A stretch of DNA of 64,000 bases from an uncultured virus (IMG/VR IMGVR_UViG_3300017782_000010) (IMGVR_UViG_3300017782_000010); one strand, 5' to 3'; counted from the stretch's first letter, positions 3,283 through 47,137 are shown. The notes: generated by a model not told the origin, from the sequence alone. Made by a program: numbers and translations.

Positions 3283-4242
3283 ATGGCACACGAACTTGAA
3301 ATTGTAAACGGACAGGCACAAATGGCATACGTTGGTGACCTTCCATGGCATGGACTTGGTACAAAGGTTGAGGCAGACCTCACACCAGACCAATTCCAAA
3401 AAGTCGCTGGACTTGATTGGGAAGTGGAGAAACAACCACTGATGACACCAAACGGTGTTAAAGTTCCAAACAAGGAAGCACTTGTAAGAACCTCTGACAA
3501 CTCTATTCTTGATGTTGTTGGTACAGGTTGGAATCCTGTACAGAACTCAGAGGCATTTGAATTCTTCCATGAGTATGTGATGGCAGGTGACATGGAAATG
3601 CACACTGCTGGTTCACTGAAAGATGGACAAATGGTTTGGGCACTTGCAAAGTGTAAAGAATCATTTGAATTGTTTAACGGTGACGTTACAGAGAACTACT
3701 TCTTGTTCTCAAACCCACACCAGTTTGGTAAGGCGATTAACATTCGTATGACACCAATTCGTGTGGTTTGCAACAACACTCTTACACTTTCTCTTTCACA
3801 GAATGCAGATAAGATGGTAACGGTAAATCACCGTAAGGCCTTTGACCCTGCTGAGGTGAAGGCACACATGAATATTGCAAATGAGAAAATGCAAGAGTAC
3901 AAATCAATGGCTGCGTTCCTTGGTTCAAAGAAGGCAACTGGTGATAATGTCATCCAGTACTTCAATGAAGTATTCGGCGCTCCTGCCAAAGAGAAAGTAG
4001 ATGGTGAACTTCCATTTACAACTCGTAATGCGAAACTCGCCTACGAAAACCTTGATGTCCAACCTGGCGCTAACTTTGCCCAAGGTACTTGGTGGACTGC
4101 CTTCAACTCTGTCACTAACATGACAGACCACTTGCAAGGTCGTTCAAATGATGGACGTTTGGTTTCATCTTGGTACGGACGTAACCGTAAGGTCAAGTTG
4201 AACGCACTTGACAAGGCTTTGGAATACGCCGAAGCCGCCTAA
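3283..4242 (+). CDS. DUF932/LGT_TIGR03299-like phage protein
   Basis: PWHGLG N-terminus, TPIRVVCNNTL motif; strong RBS AAGGAG. Confidence 0.8.
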   Translation: MAHELEIVNGQAQMAYVGDLPWHGLGTKVEADLTPDQFQKVAGLDWEVEKQPLMTPNGVKVPNKEALVRTSDNSILDVVGTGWNPVQNSEAFEFFHEYVMAGDMEMHTAGSLKDGQMVWALAKCKESFELFNGDVTENYFLFSNPHQFGKAINIRMTPIRVVCNNTLTLSLSQNADKMVTVNHRKAFDPAEVKAHMNIANEKMQEYKSMAAFLGSKKATGDNVIQYFNEVFGAPAKEKVDGELPFTTRNAKLAYENLDVQPGANFAQGTWWTAFNSVTNMTDHLQGRSNDGRLVSSWYGRNRKVKLNALDKALEYAEAA

Positions 4243-4260
4243 AAAGAATTTGTGTGGGGG

Positions 4261-4292
4261 TTGATTTTTCGGAATTAATCCCCATATAAATA
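4261..4292 (+). promoter_or_regulatory. Sigma32-like promoter overlapping a T4 late promoter
   Basis: TTG-N17-CCCATAT at 4261-4287; TATAAATA at 4285-4292. Confidence 0.6.
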
Positions 4293-4296
4293 TGGA

Positions 4297-4358
4297 TGCA
4301 GATGCGAATTATCGGTCTGCAATTATTAATCTTGCTTAAACAAAGGAGATAAATTATG
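4297..4358 (+). promoter_or_regulatory. ROSE-like RNA thermometer in the hsp20 leader
   Basis: ATCTTGCTT (4329-4337) pairs with SD AAGGAGAT (4343-4350), leaving a bulged G; upstream hairpin TGCAGA/TCTGCA. Confidence 0.7.
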
Positions 4359-4799
4359 ACTAACTTAAGCACATTCAGAAATGCCCTTCAGGCATTTGAC
4401 GTAAATCACATGACACCCTATGCCGTGGGCTTCGATAGAACATTCGACAGACTGTTCGATTATGTAACTCATCAGGCAGAATCAACAGGGTATCCACCTT
4501 ACAATATTGAAAAGACAGATGAGTACAATTACACAATTGAAATGGCACTCGCTGGATTCGGTAAGAAGGATATCGAAATTGAATTCGCAGAGGGTCTTCT
4601 CACTGTAAAATCAGTAAAAGAGAAAGAGGAAAAGGAAACTCTTTATAAAGGTATCTCACAGAGAAACTTCACTAGAAAGTTCACTCTGGCCGATGATATT
4701 GTTGTAGGGGGTGCAAAACTCGACAATGGTATGTTGACTATCGAACTAGAAAGAATCGTACCAGAGGAGAAAAAACCTCAGTTGATTGCCGTCAAATAA
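4356..4799 (+). CDS. hsp20: Small heat shock protein (IbpA/Hsp20)
   Basis: GFD, YPPYNI, ALAGF, YKGISQRNFTRKF, NGMLTIEL motifs. Confidence 0.95.
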   Translation: MTNLSTFRNALQAFDVNHMTPYAVGFDRTFDRLFDYVTHQAESTGYPPYNIEKTDEYNYTIEMALAGFGKKDIEIEFAEGLLTVKSVKEKEEKETLYKGISQRNFTRKFTLADDIVVGGAKLDNGMLTIELERIVPEEKKPQLIAVK

Positions 4800-4804
4800 A
4801 TCCC

Positions 4805-4833
4805 TTGACAAATGGGGTTTTCTTTGATATGAT
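4805..4833 (+). promoter_or_regulatory. Sigma70-type promoter
   Basis: TTGACA-17bp-TATGAT. Confidence 0.7.
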
Positions 4834-4867
4834 GTGAATACTCAACTAATAAATTATGGGAGTAATT

Positions 4868-5125
4868 ATGAGCAGAAGAAAACTAAGCAAAAAGCAGAAG
4901 GTATTCAACCTTTTGTCAAAAGGTGAAAATGTAACGTGGAAAGTCTTGAGAAAAAGATTTGACCTTACTTCACCAACTAAAATGATTGACACTTTGAAAT
5001 CAGAGGGTCACTGTATCTATACTAACGACACTGCAAAGGGCGTTGCGTATAGAATGGGAACTCCTTCAAAGGAAATCATTGCGGCTGGTATTGCGTCTGT
5101 ACTTGGTACAAAGTACGCATACTAA
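4868..5125 (+). CDS. Small basic protein, probable winged-helix DNA binder
   Basis: Helical pattern followed by IDTLKSEGHCIYT..VAYRMG wing; RBS GGGAG. Confidence 0.55.
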   Translation: MSRRKLSKKQKVFNLLSKGENVTWKVLRKRFDLTSPTKMIDTLKSEGHCIYTNDTAKGVAYRMGTPSKEIIAAGIASVLGTKYAY

Positions 5126-5136
5126 ATGTCAGACTC

Positions 5137-5159
5137 GATGGGGGGTTCTTCCCCCCATC
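5137..5159 (+). terminator. GC-rich hairpin (terminator or processing site)
   Basis: GATGGGGGG-TTCTT-CCCCCCATC; no U tract on the + strand. Confidence 0.45.
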
Positions 5160-5179
5160 AAACTTATAGGATGTAACAG

Positions 5180-5458
5180 GTGAAAAATATTGACTACAAA
5201 TATTCAGAAGACAAGATTCTGAATGAACTGCAAGAGTACATTGACGGTACTTACAATGCACATTATTCACACAACAAATTCCAAGCGACAGAATTTATCA
5301 TGGACAGTGGACATGGTGAAGGTTTCTGTATTGGGAATATTTTGAAGTATTCTCAAAGATACGGAAAGAAAGATGGCAAGAACAGAAATGACTTGCTAAA
5401 AGTAATTCATTATGGTATAATGGCATTACACAATCACGACAGTAGAGAAGGAAACTAA
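5180..5458 (+). CDS. DUF3310-like protein
   Basis: HYS, GFCIGNILKYSQRYGKK motif. Confidence 0.75.
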   Translation: MKNIDYKYSEDKILNELQEYIDGTYNAHYSHNKFQATEFIMDSGHGEGFCIGNILKYSQRYGKKDGKNRNDLLKVIHYGIMALHNHDSREGN

Positions 5459-5461
5459 TGA

Positions 5462-5626
5462 ATGTCGAAGGGTCTTGTAAGCGAAACTGACCGCTTGATT
5501 ATTCTCATGGAAGAAATCGCTTATGCAGAAACACAACTGCAACCAGAGGATACAGGTCACATCCACACTGCAATCAGTTGGATGAAATCAAGAGTTGAAG
5601 CAATTAAAAGTAAATTGGAGAAATAA
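5462..5626 (+). CDS. Hypothetical 54 aa protein (not in ORF track)
   Basis: MSKGLVSETDRL...EDTGHIHTAISWMKSRVEAIKSKLEK fills the gap before gp45. Confidence 0.65.
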   Translation: MSKGLVSETDRLIILMEEIAYAETQLQPEDTGHIHTAISWMKSRVEAIKSKLEK

Positions 5627-5630
5627 TATT

Positions 5631-6287
5631 ATGAAACTTAGTAATGATACAAGGGAAGTGTTGAAGAACTATTCAACCATCAACGCCAACCTTCTTGTGA
5701 GCCCAGGCAACAAGATTGCAACAATGTCTCAAATGAAGAACATTGTATCCACCGCAACTGTGCCTGATACATTTGATACTGACTTTGCAATCTATGACTT
5801 GAATGAGTTCTTGTCTGCACTGTCACTATTCAATGACCCAGAACTTACATTTGGTGAACAGAGTGTGCGTATTGCACAAGGTAGTCAAGACTTGACCTAC
5901 TTCTATTCTGACCCATCTGTGGTTACTACACCAAAGACAGAAATCAGTATGCCGTCTGTAGATGCAGAGTTTACTCTGACTAAAGATACTTTCAATCAAG
6001 TATTGAAGGCCGCCGCTGTTCTTGGAGCGCCAGATATGGTTCTTGACATTGGTACTGACAGTATCATGGACTTGCGTGTGAGTGACCGTAAGAATGATAC
6101 CTCAAACAATTTCAGTGTTGAGGTTGGTGCAGAAAGTCCAGCGAAAGGTAAGAAGTTCTACTTCAAGGTAGAGAATCTAAAACTCTTGTCTGGTGATTAT
6201 GACGTACAGGTATCTGAAAAAGGTATCTCACGTTTCAAGAACGTCAGTAAGGATGTCGAATACTACATTGCACTAGAGACTGCTTAA
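5631..6287 (+). CDS. gp45: Sliding clamp
   Basis: MKLSNDT..LKNYSTIN, FAIYDLNEFL; position before the clamp loader. Confidence 0.95.
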   Translation: MKLSNDTREVLKNYSTINANLLVSPGNKIATMSQMKNIVSTATVPDTFDTDFAIYDLNEFLSALSLFNDPELTFGEQSVRIAQGSQDLTYFYSDPSVVTTPKTEISMPSVDAEFTLTKDTFNQVLKAAAVLGAPDMVLDIGTDSIMDLRVSDRKNDTSNNFSVEVGAESPAKGKKFYFKVENLKLLSGDYDVQVSEKGISRFKNVSKDVEYYIALETA

Positions 6288-6288
6288 A

Positions 6289-7224
6289 ATGAATGATATA
6301 TTATGGGTAGAGAAGTACCGTCCTCAAACAATTGAGGACTGCATACTTCCAAGTGAACTAAAGCAGACTTTTCAACAGTTCGTAGACAACGAAGAGATTC
6401 CAAATCTACTACTCACTGGTACGGCCGGTGTTGGTAAGACTACAATTGCAAAAGCAATGCTGGAACAGATTGGTTGTACCTACATGATGATAAACGGTTC
6501 TGAAGAATCTGGTATCGACACACTACGAACTAAAATTAAAAACTTTGCGAGTACTGTCTCTATGGATGGTAAACGCAAGTACGTTATTCTGGATGAGGCA
6601 GATTATCTAAACCCACAATCCACACAACCAGCGTTGCGTGGGTTTATTGAGGAGTTTAGTAGAAACTGTGGTTTCATTCTGACTTGTAATTTCAGAAATC
6701 GTATCATTGAACCTTTGCATAGTCGTTGTTCTACGATAGAGTTTCGTATTCCAAACGAAGAGAAACCAAAACTTGCAATGGGTTTTATGAAACGTGTACA
6801 ACACATTTTGGAGACTGAGAATGTTAACTCAAATGAAAAAGTTGTGGCAGACCTTATCAACAAGTTTTTTCCAGATTGGAGAAGATGTCTCAACGAACTA
6901 CAACGATACTCTGCGACAGGTTCTATTGATGCTGGAATCCTCGTCAATCTATCAGACGCTTCTATCAAAGAGCTCGTGTCATTTATTAAGGATAAAGACT
7001 TCAAGGGTTGTAGAGAGTGGGTTGTTCATAATCTGGACAATGACCCTCATAGGGTTTATCGTAGGATTTATGATAGTTTATCTGGTAATGTACCAGATGG
7101 CGCTGTTCCTCACTGTGTTCTCATACTTGGGGATTATTCTTATAAGTCTGCCTTTGTCGCTGACCAAGAAATTAATCTCTTGGCTTGTCTCACTGAGATG
7201 ATGACATCGGTGCAGTTCAGATGA
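6289..7224 (+). CDS. gp44: Clamp loader large subunit
   Basis: WVEKYRP, GTAGVGKTT, DEAD, SRC motifs. Confidence 0.96.
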   Translation: MNDILWVEKYRPQTIEDCILPSELKQTFQQFVDNEEIPNLLLTGTAGVGKTTIAKAMLEQIGCTYMMINGSEESGIDTLRTKIKNFASTVSMDGKRKYVILDEADYLNPQSTQPALRGFIEEFSRNCGFILTCNFRNRIIEPLHSRCSTIEFRIPNEEKPKLAMGFMKRVQHILETENVNSNEKVVADLINKFFPDWRRCLNELQRYSATGSIDAGILVNLSDASIKELVSFIKDKDFKGCREWVVHNLDNDPHRVYRRIYDSLSGNVPDGAVPHCVLILGDYSYKSAFVADQEINLLACLTEMMTSVQFR

Positions 7225-7613
7225 GTTATGAACTGAAAGAATACTTAAAGGCGATAAACAAGACTAAACAAAACCTCATGGACGGTGAGGATGAAATGTG
7301 GGAAAAGAAGTATCCTGCCTTTATTATCAACAAGTGTCTTGCCCCTACAGGTATGCAAGAGTGTCTAATCGTAAATGAGATGAATCGTTTACACCACCTA
7401 GACAACAAACTTCAAAATGACTTTTTACTAAATAGTTTGAGGAGTATGAATAGATATGCTCCTTGGATGAAGGCGAAGAAGTCTAAGAACTTAGAGTATG
7501 TAAAAGAATATTTCGGATACAGTAACGAGAAGGCCAAGGCCGCTCTAGATGTTTTAGATGATGAACAAATCGCCATGATAAAAAGTAAATTGAATAAAGG
7601 TGGAAGAAAATGA
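7221..7613 (+). CDS. gp62: Clamp loader small subunit
   Basis: Synteny 45-44-62-regA; YFGYSNEKA and C-terminal KGG. Confidence 0.9.
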   Translation: MSYELKEYLKAINKTKQNLMDGEDEMWEKKYPAFIINKCLAPTGMQECLIVNEMNRLHHLDNKLQNDFLLNSLRSMNRYAPWMKAKKSKNLEYVKEYFGYSNEKAKAALDVLDDEQIAMIKSKLNKGGRK

Positions 7614-8020
7614 ATGAAACATCGTGGAGTCCAGAGGAGATGTTGGAAGTTCGTCTGAATGAACCAGACGATTTTCTGAAGGTTAGAGAAACCTTATCTC
7701 GTATTGGAGTTGCTTCTCGCAAAGATAAAACACTCTTCCAATCTTGCCATATTTTACACAAGCAAGGTAAATATTACATCGTACATTTTAAAGAATTGTT
7801 TGCATTAGACGGTAAAGATACCAACCTGTCTGAGAACGATATTGCAAGAAGGAATACTATCGCTAATCTATTAGCAGATTGGGGATTAGTAGATGTTGTG
7901 GGAACAACTAAGATTGAGGCAGCACCCTTGTCTCAAATTAAAGTAATTAGTTTCAAGGAAAAGGGTGAATGGAAACTTGAGACAAAATATAATATTGGAA
8001 AAAAGAAAGAAGGTGAATAA
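7610..8020 (+). CDS. regA: Translational repressor RegA
   Basis: DDFLKVRETLSRIG, QSCHILHKQGKYYIVHFKELF. Confidence 0.96.
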   Translation: MNETSWSPEEMLEVRLNEPDDFLKVRETLSRIGVASRKDKTLFQSCHILHKQGKYYIVHFKELFALDGKDTNLSENDIARRNTIANLLADWGLVDVVGTTKIEAAPLSQIKVISFKEKGEWKLETKYNIGKKKEGE

Positions 8021-8022
8021 TT

Positions 8023-8253
8023 ATGAAACCAGGCGATTATATTATGGAGGCTGCAAGAAAGCAGGCCGAAGGAGAAGTGGCGGTACACATCGCAAACATT
8101 AAAGTATACCAAACTATGCCCGCTGGTATCGGCGAGCATTCAGATGTTACAGAAGCAGTTATTGAAGAGTTGAATAAACTTGCGGCTGCCGATGACAGAC
8201 TAGAAATGATTAACAAGTACTTCAGCGAAGAACAAAAGAATCTTTTCTCTTGA
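8023..8253 (+). CDS. Conserved T4-like hypothetical protein
   Basis: ANIKVY..PAGIGEHSD motif; RBS present. Confidence 0.7.
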   Translation: MKPGDYIMEAARKQAEGEVAVHIANIKVYQTMPAGIGEHSDVTEAVIEELNKLAAADDRLEMINKYFSEEQKNLFS

Positions 8254-8284
8254 CAATCACAAACTAAGGTGATATAACTATATT

Positions 8285-10762
8285 ATGCGTTTTTATACCA
8301 ATGTTACCCAATGGGGTAATCAAATCCTCGTAAGAGAATACAAGAATGGTGAGCGACTTAATCACAAGGTTAAGTACTCACCAACTTTGTACGTTCCTGT
8401 CCAGAAAGAAACTGGATGGAAGACTCTTGATGGTAAGAATGTCATGCCATACAAACATGACACTATCAAGGGTGCAAAAGAATTCATACAACAATATCAG
8501 AACCAACCTCATCTGGTCTATGGACTAGACAGGTTTGCATACACTTATTTGTCAGACACATATCCAGACCGTGTGGAATGGGATAGTGACAAGATTCTTG
8601 TGTGTACAATTGATATTGAGACACAATGCGAGAACGGTTTTCCAGACCCAGAGAAGGCCGAAGAAGAAATGTTGTCTATCACCATCAAGAACCAAACCAC
8701 CAAGAAGATTGTGGTGTGGGGTATTGGTGACTATCAAAACGACAGAGAAGATATTACTTACATCAACTGTTCCAATGAGAACGAACTACTTGCATCGTTT
8801 ATGAACTTTTGGGTCAAACACTATCCAGATGCAATCACTGGTTGGAACACGGAGTTCTTTGATATTCCTTTCCTAGTCAATCGTGTGACCAAGGTTCTTG
8901 GTGAAGACCGAGCGAAAGAGTTTTCCCCTTGGGGCAACGTGTCATCACGTTCTGTGTATAGTCACGGTAGACCACAACAGGTCTATGACATTCAAGGTGT
9001 TGCAAACCTTGACTATCTACAACTGTATCAGAAGTTCACATACACTCGACAAGAATCATATCGACTTGACCATATCGCTTTTGTGGAGTTGGGTGAGAAG
9101 AAGAACGAAAACCCATACGACACTTTCAAAGATTGGTACACCAAAGACTATCAGTCATTCATTGACTACAACATCGTTGACGTTGAACTTGTTGACCGTC
9201 TGGAAGACAGGATGAAACTGTTGGAGTTGTTGTTCACCATGGCCTACGAGGCGAAGGTCAACTATGAAGATGTATTCGGACAGGTGAAGTATTGGGATGT
9301 TCTGATTCACAATTATCTCAAGAAGAAAAAGATTGTTATTCCTCAAAAGTCGCATTCATCAAAGTCTGACAAGTATGAAGGTGCATACGTCAAAGAACCA
9401 CAGGTTGGTCAACACAAGTGGGTTATGTCATTTGACTTGAACTCACTGTATCCACATCTTATCATGCAGTACAATATGTCACCAGAAACACTGGTCACTG
9501 GCGATTACATGAAACTGGACGTTGACACGATGTTGAAAGAAACACCAATTGATATTCCAGACCAATGCACTATTACACCTAACGGTGCGTTGTATCGTAA
9601 GGACAAGAAGGGTTTCCTTCCAGAGATGATGCAAGAGATTTACGATGACCGTACCATCTTCAAGAAAAAGATGTTGCGGGCCAAACAGGACTTTGAAGAT
9701 ACCAAAGACCCCAAGTATCAAAAGTATATCAGTCGTTACAACAACATCCAGATGGCTCGAAAGATTTCACTGAACTCTGCCTATGGTGCAATTGGTAATC
9801 AATACTTTCGTTACTATGACCTTGCGATTGCAGAAGGTATCACCAAGGCCGGTCAGTTGTCCATTCGTTGGATTGAGAAAAAGATTAATCAGTATCTAAA
9901 CAAGATACTCAATACAGAAGGTAAAGACTTTGTTATTGCATCTGACACAGATTCTATCTATGTTACATTTGACGCTATCATTGATGCAGTTAAACCAAAC
10001 AATCCCATCGACTTCCTTGATACGATTGCGAAAGAAAAGATTGAACCATTTATTGACAAGTCTTACAAAGAACTTGCAGATTATGTTCAGGCGTATGACC
10101 AGAAGATGCAGATGAAACGTGAGGTGGTTGCAGACAAAGGAATCTGGACTGCAAAGAAAAGGTACATTCTCAACGCATGGGATGTTGAAGGTGTACGTTT
10201 CAAAGAACCTCAACTAAAGATTATGGGTATCGAGGCTGTCAAGTCTTCAACGCCTGCACCATGTCGTGCAAAGATTAAAGAGGCACTGAAGATTATCATG
10301 TCTGGTGATGAGAAAGAACTCAACACTTTCATCCAAGACTTTCGTAAGGAGTTTATCAACTTACCTGTTGAGGAGATTGCATATCCTCGTTCTGTCAATG
10401 GACTAAAGAAGTTTCGTGACAGTGCATCCATCTATCGCAAAGGAACACCCATGCATATCAAGGGTTCACTTATTTACAATCATATGATAAGTGAGAAAAA
10501 CTTGAATGCTAAATATCCATATATTCAAGAGGGTGACAAGATTAAGTTCATTCAACTGCGACAACCCAACCCATTGGGTGCGAATGTCATATCTTTCATG
10601 ACAAAAGTTCCAAAAGAACTTGACATTCACAAGTATATCGACTATGATACACAATATGAAAAAGCATTTGTTGAACCACTATCTTTCATCACTGACAATA
10701 TCGGATGGAACATTGACCGTTCCTACGGTACGCAGACAACTTTGGAGGATTTCTTTGCATGA
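8285..10762 (+). CDS. gp43: Family B DNA polymerase
   Basis: DIET exonuclease motif, SFDLNSLYP, KISLNSAYG, SDTDS; C-terminal LEDFF clamp-binding tail. Confidence 0.98.
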   Translation: MRFYTNVTQWGNQILVREYKNGERLNHKVKYSPTLYVPVQKETGWKTLDGKNVMPYKHDTIKGAKEFIQQYQNQPHLVYGLDRFAYTYLSDTYPDRVEWDSDKILVCTIDIETQCENGFPDPEKAEEEMLSITIKNQTTKKIVVWGIGDYQNDREDITYINCSNENELLASFMNFWVKHYPDAITGWNTEFFDIPFLVNRVTKVLGEDRAKEFSPWGNVSSRSVYSHGRPQQVYDIQGVANLDYLQLYQKFTYTRQESYRLDHIAFVELGEKKNENPYDTFKDWYTKDYQSFIDYNIVDVELVDRLEDRMKLLELLFTMAYEAKVNYEDVFGQVKYWDVLIHNYLKKKKIVIPQKSHSSKSDKYEGAYVKEPQVGQHKWVMSFDLNSLYPHLIMQYNMSPETLVTGDYMKLDVDTMLKETPIDIPDQCTITPNGALYRKDKKGFLPEMMQEIYDDRTIFKKKMLRAKQDFEDTKDPKYQKYISRYNNIQMARKISLNSAYGAIGNQYFRYYDLAIAEGITKAGQLSIRWIEKKINQYLNKILNTEGKDFVIASDTDSIYVTFDAIIDAVKPNNPIDFLDTIAKEKIEPFIDKSYKELADYVQAYDQKMQMKREVVADKGIWTAKKRYILNAWDVEGVRFKEPQLKIMGIEAVKSSTPAPCRAKIKEALKIIMSGDEKELNTFIQDFRKEFINLPVEEIAYPRSVNGLKKFRDSASIYRKGTPMHIKGSLIYNHMISEKNLNAKYPYIQEGDKIKFIQLRQPNPLGANVISFMTKVPKELDIHKYIDYDTQYEKAFVEPLSFITDNIGWNIDRSYGTQTTLEDFFA

Positions 10763-11907
10763 GTTATAAACCATACACAATACAAGATGTGCGTGATGCA
10801 TCTGCACAAAACAAATTTAAAGTCATCTCTACCTTTGCTGGTGGGGGTGGTTCTTCTACAGGATATCGTCTTGCAGGCGGTAAGATTCTTTGCATGAATG
10901 AATTTGTAGAAGAGGCCCAGAACACTTATAGAGAAAACTACCCAGATACACCAATCTTGCCAGGCGACATCAAACAGTTGTCTGGTAAAGACTTTTTAGA
11001 TGTTGCTGGACTTGAGGTTGGAGAACTTGATATTCTTGATGGTTCACCACCTTGTTCTGCATTTTCAGTTGCTGGTAAAATGTGTCATACTACTGGTGGT
11101 AAACACTCTGATGGTTGGGGTCAAACTAAAAAGTATTCTGATGGTAAGATGGTCGAGAACATTGAAGACTTGTTCTTTGAGTTTCTACGAGTTGCAGATG
11201 AGATTAGACCAAAAGTAATTATTGCAGAGAATGTTGCAGGCCTGACTATTGGTGAGGCAAAACAATACTTCAACAAGATTCAGAACACATTTGACCAGAT
11301 TGGTTATGATGTTTGTGCAAAGGTTTTAGATAGTCGTTACTTTGGTGTATCCCAGACAAGAACTAGAGTGTTCTTTATCGGTGTTCGTAATGATGTAACT
11401 ACTAAAGTTGGTTTGACATTCATGAACATTGGTAGTGTGTTCCCAGAGAACTTTGACTATGTTGTTCCTTTGAAGGATGCACTCAATGGTCTAGAGTATG
11501 ACAAAGAAGAAGTTGATATGTTGACTGAAAGATTCTTGGGTACAAAGTACTGGCAGGACACTGGTGCAAAGATGCCAACTTTCCCAGAGAGAGTTTTGAA
11601 TGGTGATGACTTCAATGAACGAAACAGTCACTTCAATTTGAAGAGAGTTTCATTAGAACAACCAGCCCCCACAATTACTGCAATGGGTTCTGGTATTACT
11701 AATGCTGGTTCATTCCACTGGTCTGAACCTAGAAAACTAACTATTGGTGAACTGATGAGAATTCAATCCCTTCCAGATGACTTTGTTCTTACTGGTAAGT
11801 GGAATCAACGTGCAGAAAGAATTGGTAGGATGGTGCCACCTTTGATGTTAAAGGCGATTGCATCATCTGTTTATGAAAAGGTGATAGGAGTATACAACAA
11901 TGGCTGA
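10759..11907 (+). CDS. C5 cytosine methyltransferase family protein, probable carboxymethyltransferase
   Basis: FAGGGG, GSPPC, ENV, QTRTRVF; motif X reads GRMVPP instead of GNxVP. Confidence 0.85.
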   Translation: MSYKPYTIQDVRDASAQNKFKVISTFAGGGGSSTGYRLAGGKILCMNEFVEEAQNTYRENYPDTPILPGDIKQLSGKDFLDVAGLEVGELDILDGSPPCSAFSVAGKMCHTTGGKHSDGWGQTKKYSDGKMVENIEDLFFEFLRVADEIRPKVIIAENVAGLTIGEAKQYFNKIQNTFDQIGYDVCAKVLDSRYFGVSQTRTRVFFIGVRNDVTTKVGLTFMNIGSVFPENFDYVVPLKDALNGLEYDKEEVDMLTERFLGTKYWQDTGAKMPTFPERVLNGDDFNERNSHFNLKRVSLEQPAPTITAMGSGITNAGSFHWSEPRKLTIGELMRIQSLPDDFVLTGKWNQRAERIGRMVPPLMLKAIASSVYEKVIGVYNNG

Positions 11908-12595
11908 CTTTACATTCGCACATCGTGAAGAGGGTTTTGATGAACATATCGAAAACTCTATTCGTGGTTATGGACATTTACTAGAGGACATTGTTAGTCT
12001 ATCTCGTTACTTTGTAGAGAACGATACAAACGTGTATGACCTTGGTTGTTCTACAGGTAAGATGACACAAAGACTAATCGAGGCCAACTATGACCATTGT
12101 ACTGATGCAAGTTGGTACGGTATTGAGATTGCAGATGGGTTTCAAGATGACCTTGTAAAACGTGAAGATGTAATTTATAAGTTTGACCCAAACGCTTGGG
12201 TGTACTTTGAACATGAAGATATTAGAGATACAGAAATTCATAATGCATCTCTTGTTACTTCTATCTTTACTTTACAGTTTATGCCCAAGAGAGATAGGAA
12301 ACAAGTTATTAAAAATATCTATCACGGTTTGAACTGTGGTGGTGCGTTTATCTTCTCTGAGAAAACAATCTGTGAGAATGCAACTTTTCAAGATATGTTG
12401 ACATTCAATTATTATGACTATAAAAGAAAGTCATTTGACACTGAAGATATTATGAACAAAGAACGAACTCTTAGACATATGATGAAACCAAATACATGGA
12501 ACGAACTTACAGACATGATATATAATGCTGGGTTCAAGGACGTTCAACCGTTTTGGCGTAACCATATGTTCGTGGGTGCAATTGCAGTAAAGTGA
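11900..12595 (+). CDS. cmoA: CmoA-like carboxy-S-adenosylmethionine synthase
   Basis: DFTF..FDEHIENSIRGY, YDLGCSTG, FTLQF, GGAFIFSEK, YDYKRK pattern of CmoA. Confidence 0.8.
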   Translation: MADFTFAHREEGFDEHIENSIRGYGHLLEDIVSLSRYFVENDTNVYDLGCSTGKMTQRLIEANYDHCTDASWYGIEIADGFQDDLVKREDVIYKFDPNAWVYFEHEDIRDTEIHNASLVTSIFTLQFMPKRDRKQVIKNIYHGLNCGGAFIFSEKTICENATFQDMLTFNYYDYKRKSFDTEDIMNKERTLRHMMKPNTWNELTDMIYNAGFKDVQPFWRNHMFVGAIAVK

Positions 12596-12603
12596 GGTAA
12601 ATT

Positions 12604-13005
12604 ATGACTGTTGATTTTAATAAGTATGCAGAATTCGTGGATGAGGTGACTAGTCAAGCATCAAAAGATGCTGAGTACTTCACTGAGTCTTGTGAGATTG
12701 TTGAAGAACATGGTGTTCAACCAGAAAGGATTCTGACTGCCGCAATCGGTATTACGGCCGAAGGTGGTGAGTTCGCAGAGATTGTGAAGAAGTGTTTCTT
12801 CCAAGGTAAACCCTTTGATGAAGATGCACAATACCATGCAAAACGAGAATTAGGAGATATCATGTGGTACATAGCCCAGGCTTGTATCGCACTAGATATT
12901 ACTATAGATGATGTGATTGAAACAAATATCGAAAAGTTGGAGGCAAGATACCCAGGCGGTTTTGATGCGTATCTCTCTGAAAATCGAAAGGATGGTGATA
13001 TATAA
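12604..13005 (+). CDS. mazG: MazG-like nucleotide pyrophosphohydrolase
   Basis: [29 protein letters not shown]. Confidence 0.9.
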
Positions 13006-13007
13006 CT

Positions 13008-14063
13008 ATGGAATTTTTGAAAAACATTGCTAAGACGGCGGGCAACGAATACGCCGCACTCGTATCTGAGGGTGTAGAGGCTGGTGACGTTGATAACTTT
13101 ATTGACACTGGTTCATATATCTTTAATGCGTTACTGAGTGGGTCAATCTATGGTGGATTGCCTGCGAACAAGATTACTGCTGTTGCTGGTGAAAGTGCAA
13201 CAGGTAAAACATTTTTCGTGATGGGAATGGTGAAGTCGTTCTTGGATGCAAATCCAAACGCTGGTGTTTTGTACTTTGAATCAGAAAGTGCAATCACTAA
13301 ACAAATGGTTGTTGATAGGGGTATTGACCCAGAACGTATGGTCATTCTACCAGTAACAACTGTACAAGAGTTTAGAACACAGGCAATTCGTGTACTGGAT
13401 GATTACCTAAGACAAGATGAAGCAAACAGACAACCAATTATGTTATGTCTTGATTCACTTGGTATGTTGTCAACTACAAAAGAGGTTGATGATACTGCCG
13501 AAGGTAAGGAAACCAGAGATATGACACGGGCCCAAGTTCTCAAGGCCGCATTTAGAGTATTGACCTTGAAACTTGGTAAGGCAAAAGTACCAATGATTGT
13601 TACCAACCATACATATGACGTTGTAGGTTCTATGTTCCCAACAAAAGAAATGGGTGGTGGTTCTGGTCTGAAGTATGCCGCATCTTCAATCGTGTATCTT
13701 TCAAAGAAGAAAGAGAAAGACGGTACTGAAGTTGTTGGTAATATCATTCACTGTAAAAATCAGAAGTCACGTTTGACTATCGAAAACAAGATGGTTGATG
13801 TACGTCTGATGTATGAACGTGGATTGGATAGGTACTATGGTCTACTTGAACTTGCTCTCAAGGCAGGTATCTTTAAATCAGTTTCCACTCGTATTGAACT
13901 ACCAGATGGCACAAAGACATTCGGTAAGACAATCAATAATGACCCAGAAAAATTCTATACTGAAGATGTAATGCGTCAACTTGACGAATTTGCACAGAAA
14001 GAATTCAAGTATGGTAATCATCAAGAGGTGGAAGTTGAAGATGCAGTTCAAGAATCTGAATGA
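13008..14063 (+). CDS. uvsX: RecA-like recombinase UvsX
   Basis: [25 protein letters not shown]. Confidence 0.95.
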
Positions 14064-14607
14064 AAACTACATTCGTGTCTATGATGATGTGATTCCACAA
14101 CTCATGTGTGACCACATGATTGAGGAGTTTGAAAAGAACGAAGACCAGTTTGATAAACAAACACTAAAGGGTCATCGTTCTTTTACTCAAATTACATTGC
14201 AACAGTATAAGAACTGGAAACCATATCAAGATAACTTGCAGTACGCCTTCAATAGTTGTATCGACAGATACATGGAAGATTGTGATGTAACTAACAAGAT
14301 GTTCCCAGAACAATATGCTTATGAAATGTATCGCATGAAACGATACGAACCAAATGGTGTTGATGAATTTCATGACCATGTAGATGTAGGAAACTATGCA
14401 TCTGCAAGACGGTTCTTGGTATTTTTTCTATACCTCAATGAACCAGAAGGTGGTGAAACAGATTTCCCCCAGAGGGATATTTCTGTAACACCGAAGGCAG
14501 GTAGAATGTTGATGTTCCCACCAATGTGGACACATCTTCACGCAGGCCGAAAAGTAACAGGTGACAAATCCAAATATATAATTGGAAGTTACCTTCATTA
14601 TGTTTAA
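14041..14607 (+). CDS. 2OG-Fe(II) oxygenase (prolyl-4-hydroxylase-like)
   Basis: HxD (HVD), [21 protein letters not shown]. Confidence 0.88.
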
Positions 14608-14616
14608 GGAGAAATT

Positions 14617-14916
14617 ATGGTAAACGGTAAAGTAGTATCACTAGTAACACTTGCTGGTGAGTACATTGGCAAATTTATGCATGAGAATAATGGAAACATT
14701 ACACTTGAGAATCCAAGAATGTTGGTAAATACCCCAGACGGCAAAGTAGGTTTCGCAAGGGGTATCTGTATGACAGGTACAGAAAATCCAAAACAGGGAA
14801 TGTTTTATGCTGGTGGAGTTGTTATTCTAACAGAAACTAATCCAGAATTTAGTGCTGCATACACGGAGGCAGTAACAGGCCTTGCCGTTCCAGCACAAGG
14901 TAAGGTTATTATCTAA
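14617..14916 (+). CDS. Hypothetical protein, possible Sm-like fold
   Basis: VSLVTLAGEYIGK..ITLENPR beta-rich pattern; RBS AAGGAG. Confidence 0.6.
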   Translation: MVNGKVVSLVTLAGEYIGKFMHENNGNITLENPRMLVNTPDGKVGFARGICMTGTENPKQGMFYAGGVVILTETNPEFSAAYTEAVTGLAVPAQGKVII

Positions 14917-15242
14917 TGAAGGACATGGGCGATTACTTCAAATATGTAGAAAACAAAGACCAGAAATGGACAGGTATTGGACTGACTGAGAAGGCAGGAA
15001 AGTACCAAGGTGTTGTATATCGCTATGGTAAAGTAGATGTTTCAGAGGATAAAAAAACTGACAAAGCTACTTTACATTTTGAATGGGATATGTTAGATTC
15101 TAATGACTTACCAAAAGACTTTTTTGGTGATGATTTTTTTGAACTTGCTGGAGACATTCTTCAGCATATTATTATGGAACAATTAAACGAGGGTAGTTTA
15201 CAATATGTCGATGCAGACGATAGAGAGAACCACACTAACTAA
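14916..15242 (+). CDS. Conserved T4-like protein in the gp40 position
   Basis: Between uvsX and gp41; GVVYRYGKV motif. Confidence 0.6.
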   Translation: MKDMGDYFKYVENKDQKWTGIGLTEKAGKYQGVVYRYGKVDVSEDKKTDKATLHFEWDMLDSNDLPKDFFGDDFFELAGDILQHIIMEQLNEGSLQYVDADDRENHTN

Positions 15243-16602
15243 TCTGATTTGGGATGAGGATTACGCAAGGAAAGTAATCCCATTTATCAAACCAGAATAT
15301 TATGCAGATAAGAATGAACGTGTAATCTTTGAAGAGATTACGAAGTTCACTGAAAAGTACAATGCAATTCCGACACAGGAAGCTCTCACTATCGAACTCG
15401 ACAATCGAAAGGATGTCAATGATGATGAGTATAAGAAAATCGTGGGTATCATTGCTTCGCTTGAAAAGACAGATGTTGACACGCAATGGTTACTTGATAC
15501 CACAGAAAAGTTTTGCAAAGACAAAGCAATCTACAATGCGGTTGTTGAAGGAATAGGAATTATTGATGGAAAGGATAAGGAGAGAACACCAGAAGCAATC
15601 CCATCCATTCTATCTGAGGCACTTGCAGTATCATTTGATACTAATATTGGTCACGACTACGTTGAAGATGGTTCAGAACGATTTGACTTCTATCACAAGA
15701 AAGAAGAGAAGATTGCGTTTGACCTAGATTATTTCAACAAGATTACTAAAGGTGGATTACCACAAAAGACATTGAATATCGCACTGGCCGGAACTGGTGT
15801 TGGTAAGTCGTTGTTCATGTGTCATGTTGCGTCATCAACACTTATGCAAGGTAAGAATGTTCTGTACATCACAATGGAGATGGCAGAAGAACGTATTGCA
15901 GAACGTATTGATGCGAATCTAATGAATGTTACAATGGATGACTTGCATTCTCTTCCAAAGAAGATGTTTGAAACACAGTTATCCAAGATACAAAAAAAGA
16001 CAAACGGAAAGTTGATTATTAAGGAATACCCAACTGCGTCAGCACACGTTGGACATTTCAGAAGTCTTATCAAGGAACTCGCACTAAAACGTAGTTTCAG
16101 ACCAGACATTATTTTTATTGATTATCTAAATATATGTGCATCTTCACGATTCAAAGGAAATGCAAATGTAGGCTCTTACTTCTATATCAAGTCGATTGCA
16201 GAAGAACTAAGAGGACTTGCAGTGGAAACGAATGTACCCATCATGTCTGCAACCCAGACAACACGAACAGGGTTCACTTCCACAGACATTGGACTAGAAG
16301 ACACTTCAGAAAGTTTTGGTTTGCCTGCAACGGCCGACCTAATGTTTGCACTAATCTCGACAGAGGAACTAGAAGACCTCAATCAGATTGTGGTCAAACA
16401 ATTGAAGAACCGATACAATGACCCTACTATGAATAAGAGATTTGTATTGGGAATAGACAGAGCAAAGATGCGTCTGTATGATTGTGAACAAGAAGCACAG
16501 GGAGATTTAGTTGATAGTGGACAAGATGAAAATGTATTCGATAACACACCGTTTGCTGGAAAGAGCAAAGGATATGAAAAATTCTCTGACCTCAAGGTAT
16601 AG
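15205..16602 (+). CDS. gp41: Replicative DnaB-like helicase
   Basis: LAGTGVGKS, ITMEMAEE, IKEYPT, IDYLNI, SESFGLPATAD. Confidence 0.96.
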   Translation: MSMQTIERTTLTNLIWDEDYARKVIPFIKPEYYADKNERVIFEEITKFTEKYNAIPTQEALTIELDNRKDVNDDEYKKIVGIIASLEKTDVDTQWLLDTTEKFCKDKAIYNAVVEGIGIIDGKDKERTPEAIPSILSEALAVSFDTNIGHDYVEDGSERFDFYHKKEEKIAFDLDYFNKITKGGLPQKTLNIALAGTGVGKSLFMCHVASSTLMQGKNVLYITMEMAEERIAERIDANLMNVTMDDLHSLPKKMFETQLSKIQKKTNGKLIIKEYPTASAHVGHFRSLIKELALKRSFRPDIIFIDYLNICASSRFKGNANVGSYFYIKSIAEELRGLAVETNVPIMSATQTTRTGFTSTDIGLEDTSESFGLPATADLMFALISTEELEDLNQIVVKQLKNRYNDPTMNKRFVLGIDRAKMRLYDCEQEAQGDLVDSGQDENVFDNTPFAGKSKGYEKFSDLKV

Positions 16603-19222: not shown

Positions 19223-19635
19223 TAACTTTTAAAGAATTATTTGAAGACGAAATCGAAGAGAAAGCAACGCCTGCTCAAATTATGCAGAATCGCAGAAAGA
19301 TGAGTAGACGTATGAAAATTCTTGCAAGGAAATCTTCTGTGAAGATGAAGAAGAAGAGAGCAAGAGTAAGACGCCGTGACCCAGAAGCGTTACAGGCGAT
19401 TGCAAAACGTCAAGCAAAACAGATGGTAATCAAACGTAGTTTAGGCCCAGATGTAAACTACAAAGAACTCCCTATGCAAAAACGAATTCAAATTGACCAG
19501 AAGATTGTGGCCAAGAAACGTAAAGTGATTGATAAGATTTCACAGAAGATTCTTAGGAAACTGAAGGCTGGTGAAGGCGAGAGAGTTAAACAGAACAAGG
19601 CCGCAATGGCAGGCCAAGATGCTGTGGGAGATTAG
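19219..19635 (+). CDS. Very basic protein, putative internal head protein
   Basis: MITFKELFEDEIEE leader then K/R-rich body. Confidence 0.6.
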   Translation: MITFKELFEDEIEEKATPAQIMQNRRKMSRRMKILARKSSVKMKKKRARVRRRDPEALQAIAKRQAKQMVIKRSLGPDVNYKELPMQKRIQIDQKIVAKKRKVIDKISQKILRKLKAGEGERVKQNKAAMAGQDAVGD

Positions 19636-19636
19636 A

Positions 19637-22492
19637 ATGAAAACTTTTAAAGAAGCAAGAGGTGACACCGCAGTATTTACATTTGGTAGATTTAATCCAC
19701 CAACAACTGGTCACGAAAAACTTATAGATGCACTGGCAAGAGAGCAGGGTAAGAACCCTGGCGCTCCTATGTATGTGTATCCATCACATTCACAGAACCC
19801 AAAGAAAGACCCCCTTCCACATAATAAGAAGGTTGCATACATGAAGAAGATGTTCTCAAAGTATAAGAAGAACATCAAAGTAAGTCGTGCAAGAAACGTA
19901 TTCGATATCGCAGTTGAACTTCATAACAAAGGTCACAAGGCGATTGTAATGGTTGTTGGTTCTGACAGAGTGGACGAATTTGACAACCTACTTAACAAAT
20001 ATAATGGTGAAGAAGGTAGACACGGTTTCTACGGATTCGATGATATTAAGGTAGTATCTGCTGGAGAACGTGACCCAGACGCAGACGGTGTAGAGGGAAT
20101 GTCTGCATCAAAGATGCGAGCTGCTGCTGTTAAAAATCAGTATAAAAATGTTGTTGATGCAAGAGGTAAAGTAACAGAATATGGTTTTGAATCTGGTCTT
20201 CCAAAAGGATTTACAGATGGTGAAAAACTTTTTGCTGATGTTCGTAAGTTCATGAACCTTAAAGAAGAGTTTAATCTTACGATGGAAGAACTGAATCGTG
20301 ACCTCTACATTCGTGGAGAGATTTGGAATGTCGGTGATGTTGTGAAAACAACTGATGGTGACGAAGGTACAATTATTCGCAAGGGTACAAACTATGTTGT
20401 GTTTGAGGATTTGAGAAAAGTGTGGTTACACAACCTTGAAGAGATTTCTGAAAAGTTTAAAGTTGGTGACAAGGTAAAGGCAAAAAAGGGTTCTATGTCA
20501 AGTGGGCAACGTCATTATGAACGTACCGTTGGAACTATTGTAAAAGACTACAAAGATGGTGATTTTAAAGTCAACTTTGGTGGTAATGACGATTTCTCTG
20601 TGCCTGGCAAACTATTAGTTAAAGAAGTCAAACAGGATAAAGATATCAAAGACAAAGAAGGAACACAACCAGCAAAGTATTATGCGAAGGATGCCGATGG
20701 TGATGAGATGTCAGTATCAACTAAGAAGGCAAGAGCAAGACACTTTGCAAAAGGTAAGTCTGGGCCCGCCCCAGGCGATGCAGATGCAGATACCAAACCA
20801 TCGAAACATACCAAGAAGTTCAAACAGATGTATGGTGAGACTGAAAACCCATGTTGGGATACTCACAAACAAGTTGGTATGAAAAAGAAGAATGGTAAGA
20901 TGGTGCCGAACTGTGTACCAAAAGAAGAAGTAATTATTGAGGCAGAGATGAAATGTCCGCCTGCAACTCAAGACCTCAAGATTAATACAAAGAACAGAGA
21001 TGCAACAATCAAGAACTTTAACTATGGCCCACTGAATGTTGATGAGCCAGGCGATTACTGGAAAGATATCGCAAAGTACTGGAAGACAACTGAGGAGGCC
21101 GCAAAGAAGTCACTCTGTGGAAACTGTGTTGCATTTGATATTTCACCACGCATGGATGAATGTATGCCAGGCGAAACATCTGATGATGATGGTCGTTTGG
21201 GTTATTGTTGGATGCACCATTTCAAGTGTCATTCTGCAAGGTCATGTCACACTTGGGCAAAAGGTGGCCCAATCAAAACTGACGAGAAATCATACGATTG
21301 GCAAGAACGTGCGAATATGAATGAAAGAAAACTCACTGATGGTGAGAAAGACAAACTCAAAGATTACGAAAAAGACATTTCTAAGAAAGACTTTATTGAC
21401 AGGTATGGTAAAGAAGAAGGTGAATCCATCTACTATGCAACTCTGACTAAGATGGCAAAACAGCACGCTGAAGAGATGCATGAAATGTCGATAGGTAAGA
21501 TTGTTCGTGATAAGATTTACAATATGACACATCCGAAAAAGATGGATAGTCTTGTGAAAGCATATGCAGACGCAGTTGCAGCAGACACCAAGAAAAGACA
21601 CGGAAACAGTTTTCATGCTGGTGAAGTAATCAGAAGAAGTAATGCTGAAAGACAAGGTGTTGACGTAAGACAACTTATGAGTTATATAAACTCACTTGTT
21701 AAAAAAGGTACTATTCCAGCAACACTGAAAGCACAGGATGAGATTGATGAAGAAATCTTAGATGAAAAGATTGCTGCACTTGTAAAGAAAGCAGAGAAGT
21801 CTGGTATGCCTTATGGTATTTTGAAGAAAGTATACGATAGAGGTATGGCCGCATACAAGACTGGACATAGACCAGGCGCCACTCCACAACAATGGGCACT
21901 TGCAAGAGTGAACTCATTTACTACAAAGAGTAAAGGTACTTGGGGTAAAGCAGACGCAGACCTCGCTGCAAAGGTTAGGGGTGAAACATACGAGATTGGT
22001 AAAGATTATGCAGACCATACTCGTAAGGTAACGCCTGGCCAGTCTGTAACTAAAGAATCAATTGACGAATGGTTTCTTGACGAATCTGTAAGAGATAAAT
22101 ATGTAGTAAGATACGGTGATGAGTGGTTGTCTAAATTGACAAAGACTTATCATGCAATGTTAGAAAAGGTTGAACCATGTTGTGATGATTGTGCAGACCA
22201 TTTTGACCACATTGTAGAACAAGCAGAGTATCAAGGTAAAAAAGTAAAACTGAATGACCCAATTCGCACAAGTGAAAATCCTAACAAGAAGTTTAAGGTT
22301 TATGTGAAGAATGAAAAAGGAAAGGTCGTAGTGGTTCGTTTTGGTGACCCAAATATGGCCATCAATCGTGATGACCCAAAAAGAAGAAAGTCATTTCGTG
22401 CGAGACACAACTGCGATGACCCAGGCCCGAAAACGAAAGCAAGATATTGGAGTTGTTTCCAATGGCGTGCTGGTGCAAAAGTCGATAACTAA
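19637..22492 (+). CDS. Cytidylyltransferase-like (HIGH) domain multi-module protein, 951 aa
   Basis: MKTFKE start; FGRFNPPTTGHEKL, VVGSDR, MSASKMR; many small modules joined by acidic linkers. Confidence 0.8.
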   Translation: MKTFKEARGDTAVFTFGRFNPPTTGHEKLIDALAREQGKNPGAPMYVYPSHSQNPKKDPLPHNKKVAYMKKMFSKYKKNIKVSRARNVFDIAVELHNKGHKAIVMVVGSDRVDEFDNLLNKYNGEEGRHGFYGFDDIKVVSAGERDPDADGVEGMSASKMRAAAVKNQYKNVVDARGKVTEYGFESGLPKGFTDGEKLFADVRKFMNLKEEFNLTMEELNRDLYIRGEIWNVGDVVKTTDGDEGTIIRKGTNYVVFEDLRKVWLHNLEEISEKFKVGDKVKAKKGSMSSGQRHYERTVGTIVKDYKDGDFKVNFGGNDDFSVPGKLLVKEVKQDKDIKDKEGTQPAKYYAKDADGDEMSVSTKKARARHFAKGKSGPAPGDADADTKPSKHTKKFKQMYGETENPCWDTHKQVGMKKKNGKMVPNCVPKEEVIIEAEMKCPPATQDLKINTKNRDATIKNFNYGPLNVDEPGDYWKDIAKYWKTTEEAAKKSLCGNCVAFDISPRMDECMPGETSDDDGRLGYCWMHHFKCHSARSCHTWAKGGPIKTDEKSYDWQERANMNERKLTDGEKDKLKDYEKDISKKDFIDRYGKEEGESIYYATLTKMAKQHAEEMHEMSIGKIVRDKIYNMTHPKKMDSLVKAYADAVAADTKKRHGNSFHAGEVIRRSNAERQGVDVRQLMSYINSLVKKGTIPATLKAQDEIDEEILDEKIAALVKKAEKSGMPYGILKKVYDRGMAAYKTGHRPGATPQQWALARVNSFTTKSKGTWGKADADLAAKVRGETYEIGKDYADHTRKVTPGQSVTKESIDEWFLDESVRDKYVVRYGDEWLSKLTKTYHAMLEKVEPCCDDCADHFDHIVEQAEYQGKKVKLNDPIRTSENPNKKFKVYVKNEKGKVVVVRFGDPNMAINRDDPKRRKSFRARHNCDDPGPKTKARYWSCFQWRAGAKVDN

Positions 22493-30007: not shown

Positions 30008-30353
30008 TGGTTGTTCTAGTTTCTATAAACCAGAAAAAGAAGTTGTTACTATAACAAAGTTAATTGAGAGACAGATACCAACTGTTCCTCATCCTAAACA
30101 GGTACAGATGAATGATATTCGTATTTACGTTGTATCACCAACTGAGAACTTTGAAGAATTTAAAAAAGAATTTGAGGCCAAGAATGGTGCAGATTCATAC
30201 ATTGCAATTTCTATAAAAGATTATGAAAATCTGTCTAAGAATTTTGCAGAACTGAGAAGGTATATTGAACAACAAAAACAAATTATCCTCTACTACGAGG
30301 AAGCGGTCAAACCGCAACAAAAGGAAGAAGATGACGGAGACATTTCCAAGTAA
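29946..30353 (+). CDS. Probable o-spanin lipoprotein (Rz1-like)
   Basis: Lipobox LISGC; overlaps the 3' end of the i-spanin gene. Confidence 0.65.
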   Translation: MRQINYGVTLSLLLATTLLISGCSSFYKPEKEVVTITKLIERQIPTVPHPKQVQMNDIRIYVVSPTENFEEFKKEFEAKNGADSYIAISIKDYENLSKNFAELRRYIEQQKQIILYYEEAVKPQQKEEDDGDISK

Positions 30354-31077: not shown

Positions 31078-31315
31078 TGCAATAGCAGGGTCTATCCTTG
31101 GGTCGGCCTCCTCGGCGTGGTTTGAAAAAACTGCAATGGGTAGATGGTTTTATAAAAAGATAGACGGTTTGTACAACTGGGCTGCAAAGCGTTATGGACT
31201 AGAGATATTAAAGTCTGAAGACAAATGGAGAAAGAAGTATCCAAATGTCTCAAAGAAAATGGATGACCTTGAGAGTAGAATCCAAGAATTAGAGAAATGG
31301 TTTGTTGACAAATAG
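31058..31315 (+). CDS. Hypothetical membrane-associated protein
   Basis: Hydrophobic N-terminus, C-terminal coiled coil. Confidence 0.55.
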   Translation: MWFWAISAIAGSILGSASSAWFEKTAMGRWFYKKIDGLYNWAAKRYGLEILKSEDKWRKKYPNVSKKMDDLESRIQELEKWFVDK

Positions 31316-31394
31316 CACAGTCAAATTAATTTGTTTGTCAAAAGATTGACACTGCATAAATAGTAGTGTCGCAAATCGACAACGAGAGAGATAT

Positions 31395-33861: not shown

Positions 33862-33870
33862 GAGAGAAAA

Positions 33871-41247: not shown

Positions 41248-41310
41248 AAAATACTATATAAAGATAATAAGGGGAACAATTAAGTTCCCCTTTAATTTAT
41301 GGAGTGTCCA

Positions 41311-44984: not shown

Positions 44985-44985
44985 A

Positions 44986-45778: not shown

Positions 45779-45787
45779 GGTGATAAT

Positions 45788-46642: not shown

Positions 46643-46643
46643 A

Positions 46644-47102: not shown

Positions 47103-47108
47103 AACTTC

Positions 47109-47137
47109 TTGACATTTTGGTACTGATGAGGTACTAT
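47109..47137 (+). promoter_or_regulatory. Sigma70-type promoter for the sRNA
   Basis: TTGACA-17bp-TACTAT. Confidence 0.75.

Follow-up and report, generated by a model that had tools for sequence, protein, structure and literature searches.

A CmoX–CmoA gene pair, predicted to make 5-carboxymethylcytosine, among the replication genes of an uncultured T4-like marine phage

Carboxymethylation of DNA cytosine has been described in Synechococcus phage S-B43, which encodes a CmoA–CmoX(–CmoY) system (Yang et al., Nat Commun 2025, PMC12783734). In that report, S-B43 CmoA (SpCmoA) converts S-adenosylmethionine (SAM) and prephenate to carboxy-S-adenosylmethionine (Cx-SAM) with a kcat of 2.33 per s, compared with 0.23 per s for E. 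coli CmoA, and S-B43 CmoX (SpCmoX) accepts Cx-SAM but refuses SAM and makes 5-carboxymethylcytosine (5cxmC) in DNA, a GC motif being required. In the 1.9 Å structure of SpCmoX (8YF3), R350 touches the carboxymethyl group of Cx-SAM, and the R350N variant is inactive with SAM and with Cx-SAM and so is no 5-methylcytosine (5mC) methylase (PMC12783734). The third protein, CmoY, is an Asn-synthase-like ligase that adds glycine, and native S-B43 DNA is reported to contain the glycine amide and no free 5cxmC (PMC12783734). When expressed in E. coli, SpCmoX relied on the host CmoA (PMC12783734). Here, we analyze a 64,000-nucleotide stretch of DNA from an uncultured virus (IMG/VR IMGVR_UViG_3300017782_000010), which we refer to in its entirety as the window, and find that two of its genes, which overlap, very probably constitute a CmoX–CmoA module that makes 5cxmC, located in the replication block of a marine T4-like phage.

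Three other systems are informative for comparison. In M.MpeI N374K, a basic residue in place of the motif X Asn lets a C5 cytosine methyltransferase (C5-MTase) use Cx-SAM (PMC12783734, Discussion); the window enzyme likewise has a basic residue at this position, but M.MpeI N374K is engineered, carries Lys rather than Arg, has a CG target and is no close homologue of the window enzyme (no alignment was made). The bacterial CmoA/CmoB pathway to 5-carboxymethoxyuridine (cmo5U) in tRNA (E. coli b1870/b1871; 4GEK) shares the CmoA fold and the cofactor chemistry. It differs in its use of CmoB, a family for which searches of the 90 window open reading frames (ORFs) scanned gave no match, and in its acceptor, which in the window system is predicted to be DNA cytosine, via a C5-MTase homologue. 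A two-gene layout is also present in the cultured freshwater cyanophage S-CRM01 (HQ615693.1), in which g149 and g148, annotated as a methyltransferase-domain protein and a DNA-cytosine methyltransferase, form an overlapping CmoA–CmoX pair as in the window. The S-CRM01 CmoX is 60% identical to that of the window and has the same motif X, ERIGRMVPP, but the gene order is A–X and the pair sits not behind the polymerase gene but in the interval from the clamp-loader genes to regA. A literature search found no publication on DNA modification of S-CRM01 and, with most subscription journals outside its reach, no report of another natural CmoX system or of native terminal 5cxmC.

The elements of the predicted window module are as follows.

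10759..11907 (+): cmoX, predicted DNA cytosine C5-carboxymethyltransferase, 382 amino acids (aa), with matches to PF00145 and 8YF3
11041..11055 (+): cmoX motif IV, GSPPC (residues 95-99), with the catalytic Cys99 corresponding to SpCmoX C98
11815..11841 (+): cmoX motif X, ERIGRMVPP (residues 353-361), with Arg357 encoded at nucleotides 11827-11829
11900..12595 (+): cmoA, predicted carboxy-SAM synthase, 231 aa, with matches to TIGR00740 and 4GEK

The window locus resembles that of S-B43 in that both phages are T4-like, of the Kyanoviridae type, and carry the genes in the replication block near MazG. It differs in gene order, which is X–A in the window and A–Y–X in S-B43, in the absence of a CmoY ligase from the locus and in the position of the module directly behind the polymerase gene. 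The CmoX–CmoA chemistry is already published, and the window pair is very probably a further instance of it.

The product of the first gene is a member of the C5-MTase family, matching Pfam PF00145 (DNA_methylase) over residues 20-371 with an E-value of 4e-56 and, in NCBIfam, TIGR00675 with 161.5 bits, above the cut-off of 100.65. The best solved structure found with phmmer is that of SpCmoX, 8YF3 (E 6.7e-143), followed by that of M.HaeIII (E 2e-24), and with BLASTP 216 of 372 residues (58%) are identical to SpCmoX. Arg357 is aligned with SpCmoX R350 in phmmer, MAFFT and BLASTP alike, and in the phmmer alignment it stands opposite the Asn of IGNAVP in M.HaeIII (1DCT). The catalytic motif S96 P97 P98 C99 corresponds to SpCmoX S95-C98; SPPC, used as a criterion for CmoX in the census of PMC12783734, is present in 84 of 84 aligned rows. 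The adenine/ribose contacts of SpCmoX (F25, E47, F48 and D69) are also kept, as F26, E48, F49 and D70, although they are retained as well in the MTase of Methylophilales phage Melnitz, discussed below, and are therefore non-discriminating. One scan of IMG/VR gave 203 confirmed relatives, 80 of which were fetched; all locus counts given here refer to those 80. The motif X Arg and GSPPC are found in 80/80, and the Arg also in S-B43 and S-CRM01, which argues that this Arg is no chance feature. Together, these residues support the assignment of the window MTase as a CmoX predicted to use Cx-SAM via Arg357.

For the 231-aa protein, the top NCBIfam match is the CmoA equivalog TIGR00740 (E 2.6e-36, 125.5 bits). 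It is 60% identical to SpCmoA (137/229 residues, E 2e-97) and 33% identical to E. coli CmoA (EcCmoA), whose structure, 4GEK, it matches with an E-value of 2.8e-26. We mapped the EcCmoA cofactor contacts listed in PMC3663124 onto the window protein and found 8 of 12 to be identical (Y39, D62, G64, S66, D117, I118, F137 and E164); at the remaining ones (A70, D89, N90 and N132) the window residues are identical or similar to those of SpCmoA. Over 13 EcCmoA contact positions in all, the window protein has either the residue of the biochemically active SpCmoA or a similar one.

The initial annotation had proposed cytosine carboxymethylation by a C5-MTase with an Asn-to-Arg change, fed by a phage CmoA, and the identities and defining residues described above agree with it. 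Its motif X reading and its account of the overlaps also hold: in the ORF list and in the junction sequences, the polymerase stop and the cmoX start share ATGA, and cmoX and cmoA overlap by 8 nucleotides. What it had stated of M.MpeI N374K is found in the same form in PMC12783734, and the natural phage system of this kind to which it referred is that of S-B43.

The labels assigned through Pfam, NCBIfam and PHROG are generic ("DNA methyltransferase" and "tRNA methyltransferase") and would fit another reading, in which the MTase is an ordinary SAM-dependent 5mC methylase and CmoA serves tRNA cmo5U formation or depletes host SAM against SAM-dependent defences, the latter having been raised as an open question in PMC12783734. 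We consider this very improbable. Wild-type SpCmoX accepts Cx-SAM only (PMC12783734), and the window CmoX has the same Arg and the same cofactor contacts; the two genes overlap and are found together in 70 of the 80 loci; and no CmoB-type family was matched by the 90 scanned ORFs. SAM depletion could come as an added effect, but it would leave the conserved Arg unexplained.

If the pair acts as its S-B43 homologues do, CmoA would make Cx-SAM from SAM and host prephenate, and CmoX would flip the target cytosine out of newly made phage DNA. Cys99 would then attack at C6, with Arg357 holding the carboxymethyl group of Cx-SAM for its transfer to C5, which would give 5cxmC. DNA modified in this way would be expected to resist restriction enzymes whose sites include the modified cytosine. 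That the pair is instead a decaying, inactive remnant is very improbable, and we found no point in favor of it. Both ORFs are intact and all catalytic motifs are kept; moreover, identical copies of the two window proteins are found on 15 and 21 contigs in NCBI, JGI, ENA and Logan, the longest of them 75,518 nucleotides, and a 100%-identical CmoX is present on 4 contigs of IMG/VR, which is one source of the published census.

Whether 5cxmC is the final mark turns on the ligase. Pfam searches of the 90 ORFs gave no match to PF00733 (Asn_synthase) or to GATase (the glutamine-amidotransferase domain), and tblastn of the window with five ligase queries (S-B43 CmoY, two CmoY-like proteins from IMG/VR and two of AsnB type) gave a best E-value of 0.3, in line with the initial annotation, which had seen no amide-ligase hypermodifier in the window. 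It had also pointed to the rest of the genome as the place to look for an Asn-synthetase-like partner. The nearest record (G001, 61.7 kb) spans window-equivalent positions ~25,317 to 87,050, which leaves out 8285-14100; it is 100% identical to window positions 44001-64000 over the 20 kb compared and runs ~23 kb further. It contains no match to PF00733 or to SpCmoY, in a search that did match L008, one of the fetched loci. The window and G001 together cover ~87 kb, or ~60% of a genome estimated to be near 140 kb from a CheckV completeness of 44% for G001, so that the absence of such a partner holds for this span. In two complete genomes with both CmoX and CmoA, those of S-CRM01 (178,563 bp) and G006 (200,733 bp, with terminal repeats and rated 100% complete), a PF00733 search found no match, while the positive controls S-B43 and G007 gave one match each in that search. 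We think that a stand-alone, two-gene version of CmoX–CmoA is real, because the ligase searches are negative both here and in these complete genomes. Since no ligase of the CmoY or AsnB type is found at the locus or in the ~87 kb, we lean slightly towards bare 5cxmC, rather than an amide derivative, as the predicted final mark of the window phage.

Other candidates for the ligase were considered. Among the family-less window ORFs, Pfam at an E-value of 0.001 and PHROGs gave nothing usable for a non-canonical ligase, nor did the ESM Atlas for the 662-aa ORF at 31873-33861. In 15 of the 80 loci the interval from regA to the polymerase gene contains RimK-type ATP-grasp genes; these were set aside as well, Melnitz having one without CmoX and the window having none.

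A ligase is encoded in 31 of the 80 loci, of the short CmoY type in 27 and of the AsnB type with a GATase domain (AsnB+GATase) in 4, and it is always within ~2 kb of cmoX or cmoA; in L069 and L070 it lies 1.5 kb beyond cmoA and does not adjoin cmoX. In 32 of the 80 loci the polymerase gene abuts cmoX, as it does in the window, and no ligase is found in any of these 32 (0/32, locus sequence only). A quick maximum-likelihood tree built from 84 CmoX rows places the window in a 7-row clade with a support of 100 in the Shimodaira–Hasegawa-like approximate likelihood ratio test (SH-aLRT), of which six members are ligase-less and the seventh is L008; the short CmoY is present in its sister clade of 5 rows. 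The distribution of the ligase takes at least 12 changes on this tree, a count for which six rows with too little upstream sequence were left unlabelled and Melnitz was excluded.

In L008, a 381-aa family-less protein and a 468-aa protein with GATase and Asn_synthase domains (AsnB-type) are inserted between the polymerase gene and cmoX (L008 5410-7963). The 468-aa ligase starts Met-Cys, as class-II glutamine amidotransferases do. It is probably of the glutamine-dependent ligase type that was not obtained soluble in PMC12783734, and AsnB-type ligases would be expected to yield the carboxamide. Family-less proteins of ~360-400 aa lie between the polymerase gene and cmoX in relatives and gave one sub-threshold match, to ParB_N (E 0.006); they may be the "ParBc" proteins of PMC12783734.

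Several points weigh against the reading of the window pair as a module with 5cxmC as its product. The individual steps are known from the S-B43 homologues and are carried over to the window through 58-60% identity and conserved residues, and the expected protection from restriction is likewise carried over from the HhaI experiment on S-B43-type modification (PMC12783734). The window CmoA scores below the curated TIGR00740 cut-off (125.5 vs 193.3 bits); however, this cut-off excludes the proven phage enzyme too, since SpCmoA scores only 115.6 bits, and S-CRM01 CmoA scores 119.1 bits. Arg199 of EcCmoA forms a salt bridge to the cofactor carboxylate (PMC3663124), and in the MAFFT alignment its column holds Glu188 in the window CmoA, with Arg189 adjacent. 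SpCmoA, though active, has Glu followed by Lys there, and a one-residue indel six columns upstream makes the register at this column uncertain. In CmoX, the target-recognition region (between motifs VIII and IX) has just 41 of 115 residues (36%) identical to SpCmoX, compared with 143 of 202 in the N-terminal catalytic part. With respect to the ligase, ~40% of the genome lies outside the ~87 kb scanned and a distant ligase could sit there; a ligase unrelated to Asn synthase would escape the search, and several window ORFs, such as that of 662 aa, are family-less; and ligase presence varies within the clade of the window, as L008, with a CmoX 94% identical to that of the window, has one.

These last points, together with the glycine amide of native S-B43 DNA and the ligases of related loci, are the case for 5cxmC as a mere intermediate that an unseen ligase, or one of an unrecognised family, converts to an amide, for example 5-glycylcarboxymethylcytosine or the carboxamide. 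We regard this as a possibility, but a lesser one: the ligases of relatives are all close to cmoX or cmoA, whereas in the window the polymerase and MazG genes flank the module closely, and the complete genomes of S-CRM01 and G006 show no PF00733 match.

Given the divergence of the target-recognition region, the GC specificity of S-B43 CmoX is not to be presumed for the window enzyme, and this divergence may provide a carboxymethyltransferase with another sequence specificity, useful as a tool enzyme. We considered word avoidance as a sign of a specificity narrower than GC. In window positions 1-64000, GATC is absent where 226 ± 15 occurrences are expected and CGCG where 32 ± 5.6 are expected, while GGCC is over-represented (132 vs 67 ± 8.7 expected). 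Melnitz, although devoid of CmoX, avoids the same two words over 50 kb (found/expected 4/186 for GATC and 0/17 for CGCG), and avoidance of CCGG, GGCC and AGCT persists in S-B43, whose CmoX is GC-specific; on these grounds word avoidance was rejected as such a sign. Being shared with Melnitz, the absence of GATC and CGCG points to lineage or host and not to CmoX, and looks like a restriction-avoidance trait independent of it.

In ten of the 80 loci cmoA is not found; in five of these at least 1 kb of sequence downstream of cmoX is available, and the other five are cut short. Nine of the ten form one clade (L010, L011 and L077-L083; SH-aLRT 99), in which the order is polymerase, cmoX, an ORF of ~100 aa and uvsX and the motif X Arg is kept; five have at least 1 kb downstream. 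The CmoX enzymes of this clade may depend on host CmoA, by analogy with SpCmoX in E. coli. The initial annotation had allowed that the system might be rare; it is instead common, with 203 relatives in a single scan and a published census of 5,615 CmoX, 4,257 CmoA and 2,251 ligases, for which IMG/VR was among the sources (PMC12783734). In public annotation such proteins are still called "DNA (cytosine-5)-methyltransferase 1" and "tRNA (cmo5U34)-methyltransferase", the names borne by the few named members of the window protein clusters. Right beside cmoX–cmoA in some relatives are genes of the serine hydroxymethyltransferase, dCMP deaminase or GMP-reductase/IMPDH family (L015 487-1731; L013 2983-3426; L031 5634-6719).

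The immediate surroundings of the module comprise the following features.

8285..10762 (+): DNA polymerase, family B (T4 gp43-like), PF00136 E 4.4e-30 and PF03104 E 1.6e-24
10620..10648 (+): sigma-70-like promoter match, TTGACA-17-TATGAT, 11/12, ~110 nucleotides upstream of the cmoX ATG
12604..13005 (+): MazG-like pyrophosphohydrolase, PF03819 E 1.8e-09

The MazG gene, 8 nucleotides beyond cmoA, is the conserved downstream border of a modification slot and is outside the system itself. The promoter match is a weak lead only, as 7000-15500 holds 23 promoter-like sites vs 26.9 ± 5.1 in shuffles, a number not above chance; a terminator scan around the locus was likewise not above chance.

The window as a whole is a T4-like replication and nucleotide-metabolism block, with sliding clamp, clamp loader, RegA, polymerase, UvsX, gp41-type helicase, primase, NrdAB, RNase H, gp59 and gp32, followed by minus-strand baseplate genes. 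Its closest cultured relative is Melnitz, with 76% nucleotide identity over 748 nucleotides of the polymerase gene. From regA to nrdA nearly all window ORFs have Melnitz counterparts in the same order, the exceptions being cmoA and a block at 30331-34401. Because of this collinearity, and because scanning 90 ORFs turned up no photosynthesis gene, the host of the window phage is probably not a cyanobacterium, a further difference from S-B43.

In Melnitz (MZ577097.1, genes 5-9; 4010-8386), the same polymerase-to-MazG slot, bordered by a MazG 68% identical to that of the window, contains a different cassette. Its C5-MTase is 38-42% identical to that of the window and has SPPC, but its motif X reads ARIGLMVAP, with Leu in place of Arg or Asn, and the cassette has no CmoA. 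The partners of this MTase are a Tet_JBP oxygenase, a 427-aa family-less protein, a P-loop kinase-like protein and a 99-aa protein. By likeness to published phage TET systems, it is presumably a pathway of the 5mC-to-5-hydroxymethylcytosine type; apparently, this cultured phage carries a different kind of cassette for cytosine hypermodification, one not yet described. Since Melnitz holds an MTase and a TET protein where the window has CmoX–CmoA, the polymerase–MazG slot, judged by its gene content, houses one or another cytosine-C5 modification cassette in genomes that are collinear. The contents seen so far are CmoX–CmoA alone, CmoX–CmoA with the short CmoY, CmoX–CmoA with an AsnB-type amidotransferase, CmoX without CmoA, and MTase with TET. 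The combined proposal that the window phage, like S-CRM01 and G006, packages bare, negatively charged 5cxmC and that the slot is a swap site for cytosine-C5 chemistries is, in our estimation, evenly balanced between right and wrong.

If the prediction holds, CmoA–CmoX chemistry reaches beyond cyanophages to an abundant lineage of marine T4-like phages, one collinear with a phage that infects OM43-type methylotrophs. Beyond this instance in a non-cyanophage-like marine lineage, what is new here is the occurrence of ligase-less modules in complete genomes, the polymorphism of ligase presence among close relatives and the cassette swap relative to Melnitz. So far, bare 5cxmC is on record from recombinant E. 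coli and from in vitro work only; what native S-B43 DNA contains is the glycine amide. The ligase-less two-gene versions are the obvious place to ask about bare 5cxmC in native virions, and they bear on how a cytosine carboxylate affects restriction, packaging and transcription.

Several other features of the window were observed. The block at 30331-34401 that has no Melnitz counterpart encodes a class-3 lipase/esterase (PF01764, E 2.4e-22), the 662-aa ORF, for which Pfam, PHROGs and the Atlas gave no match, and an ORF of 176 aa. A 957-aa ORF at 19619-22492 (+) combines an N-terminal cytidylyltransferase-like region (PHROG 3041, E 2.2e-80) with DUF5824 and is partly conserved in Melnitz. Host-like auxiliary genes in 40813-41784, 44766-44984 and 49955-50713 encode a plastocyanin/azurin-type copper protein, a short Na/Pi-cotransporter-like ORF, ribosomal protein S21 and PhoH. 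Beside the baseplate/tail-tube genes, an ORF at 63367-63960 (-) has a TnsA-like endonuclease domain at its N terminus (PF08722, E 7e-21). A tmRNA gene at 53093-53454 (+) encodes the tag peptide ANDNNAYVDYALAA, and the Melnitz annotation lists a tmRNA at the syntenic position.

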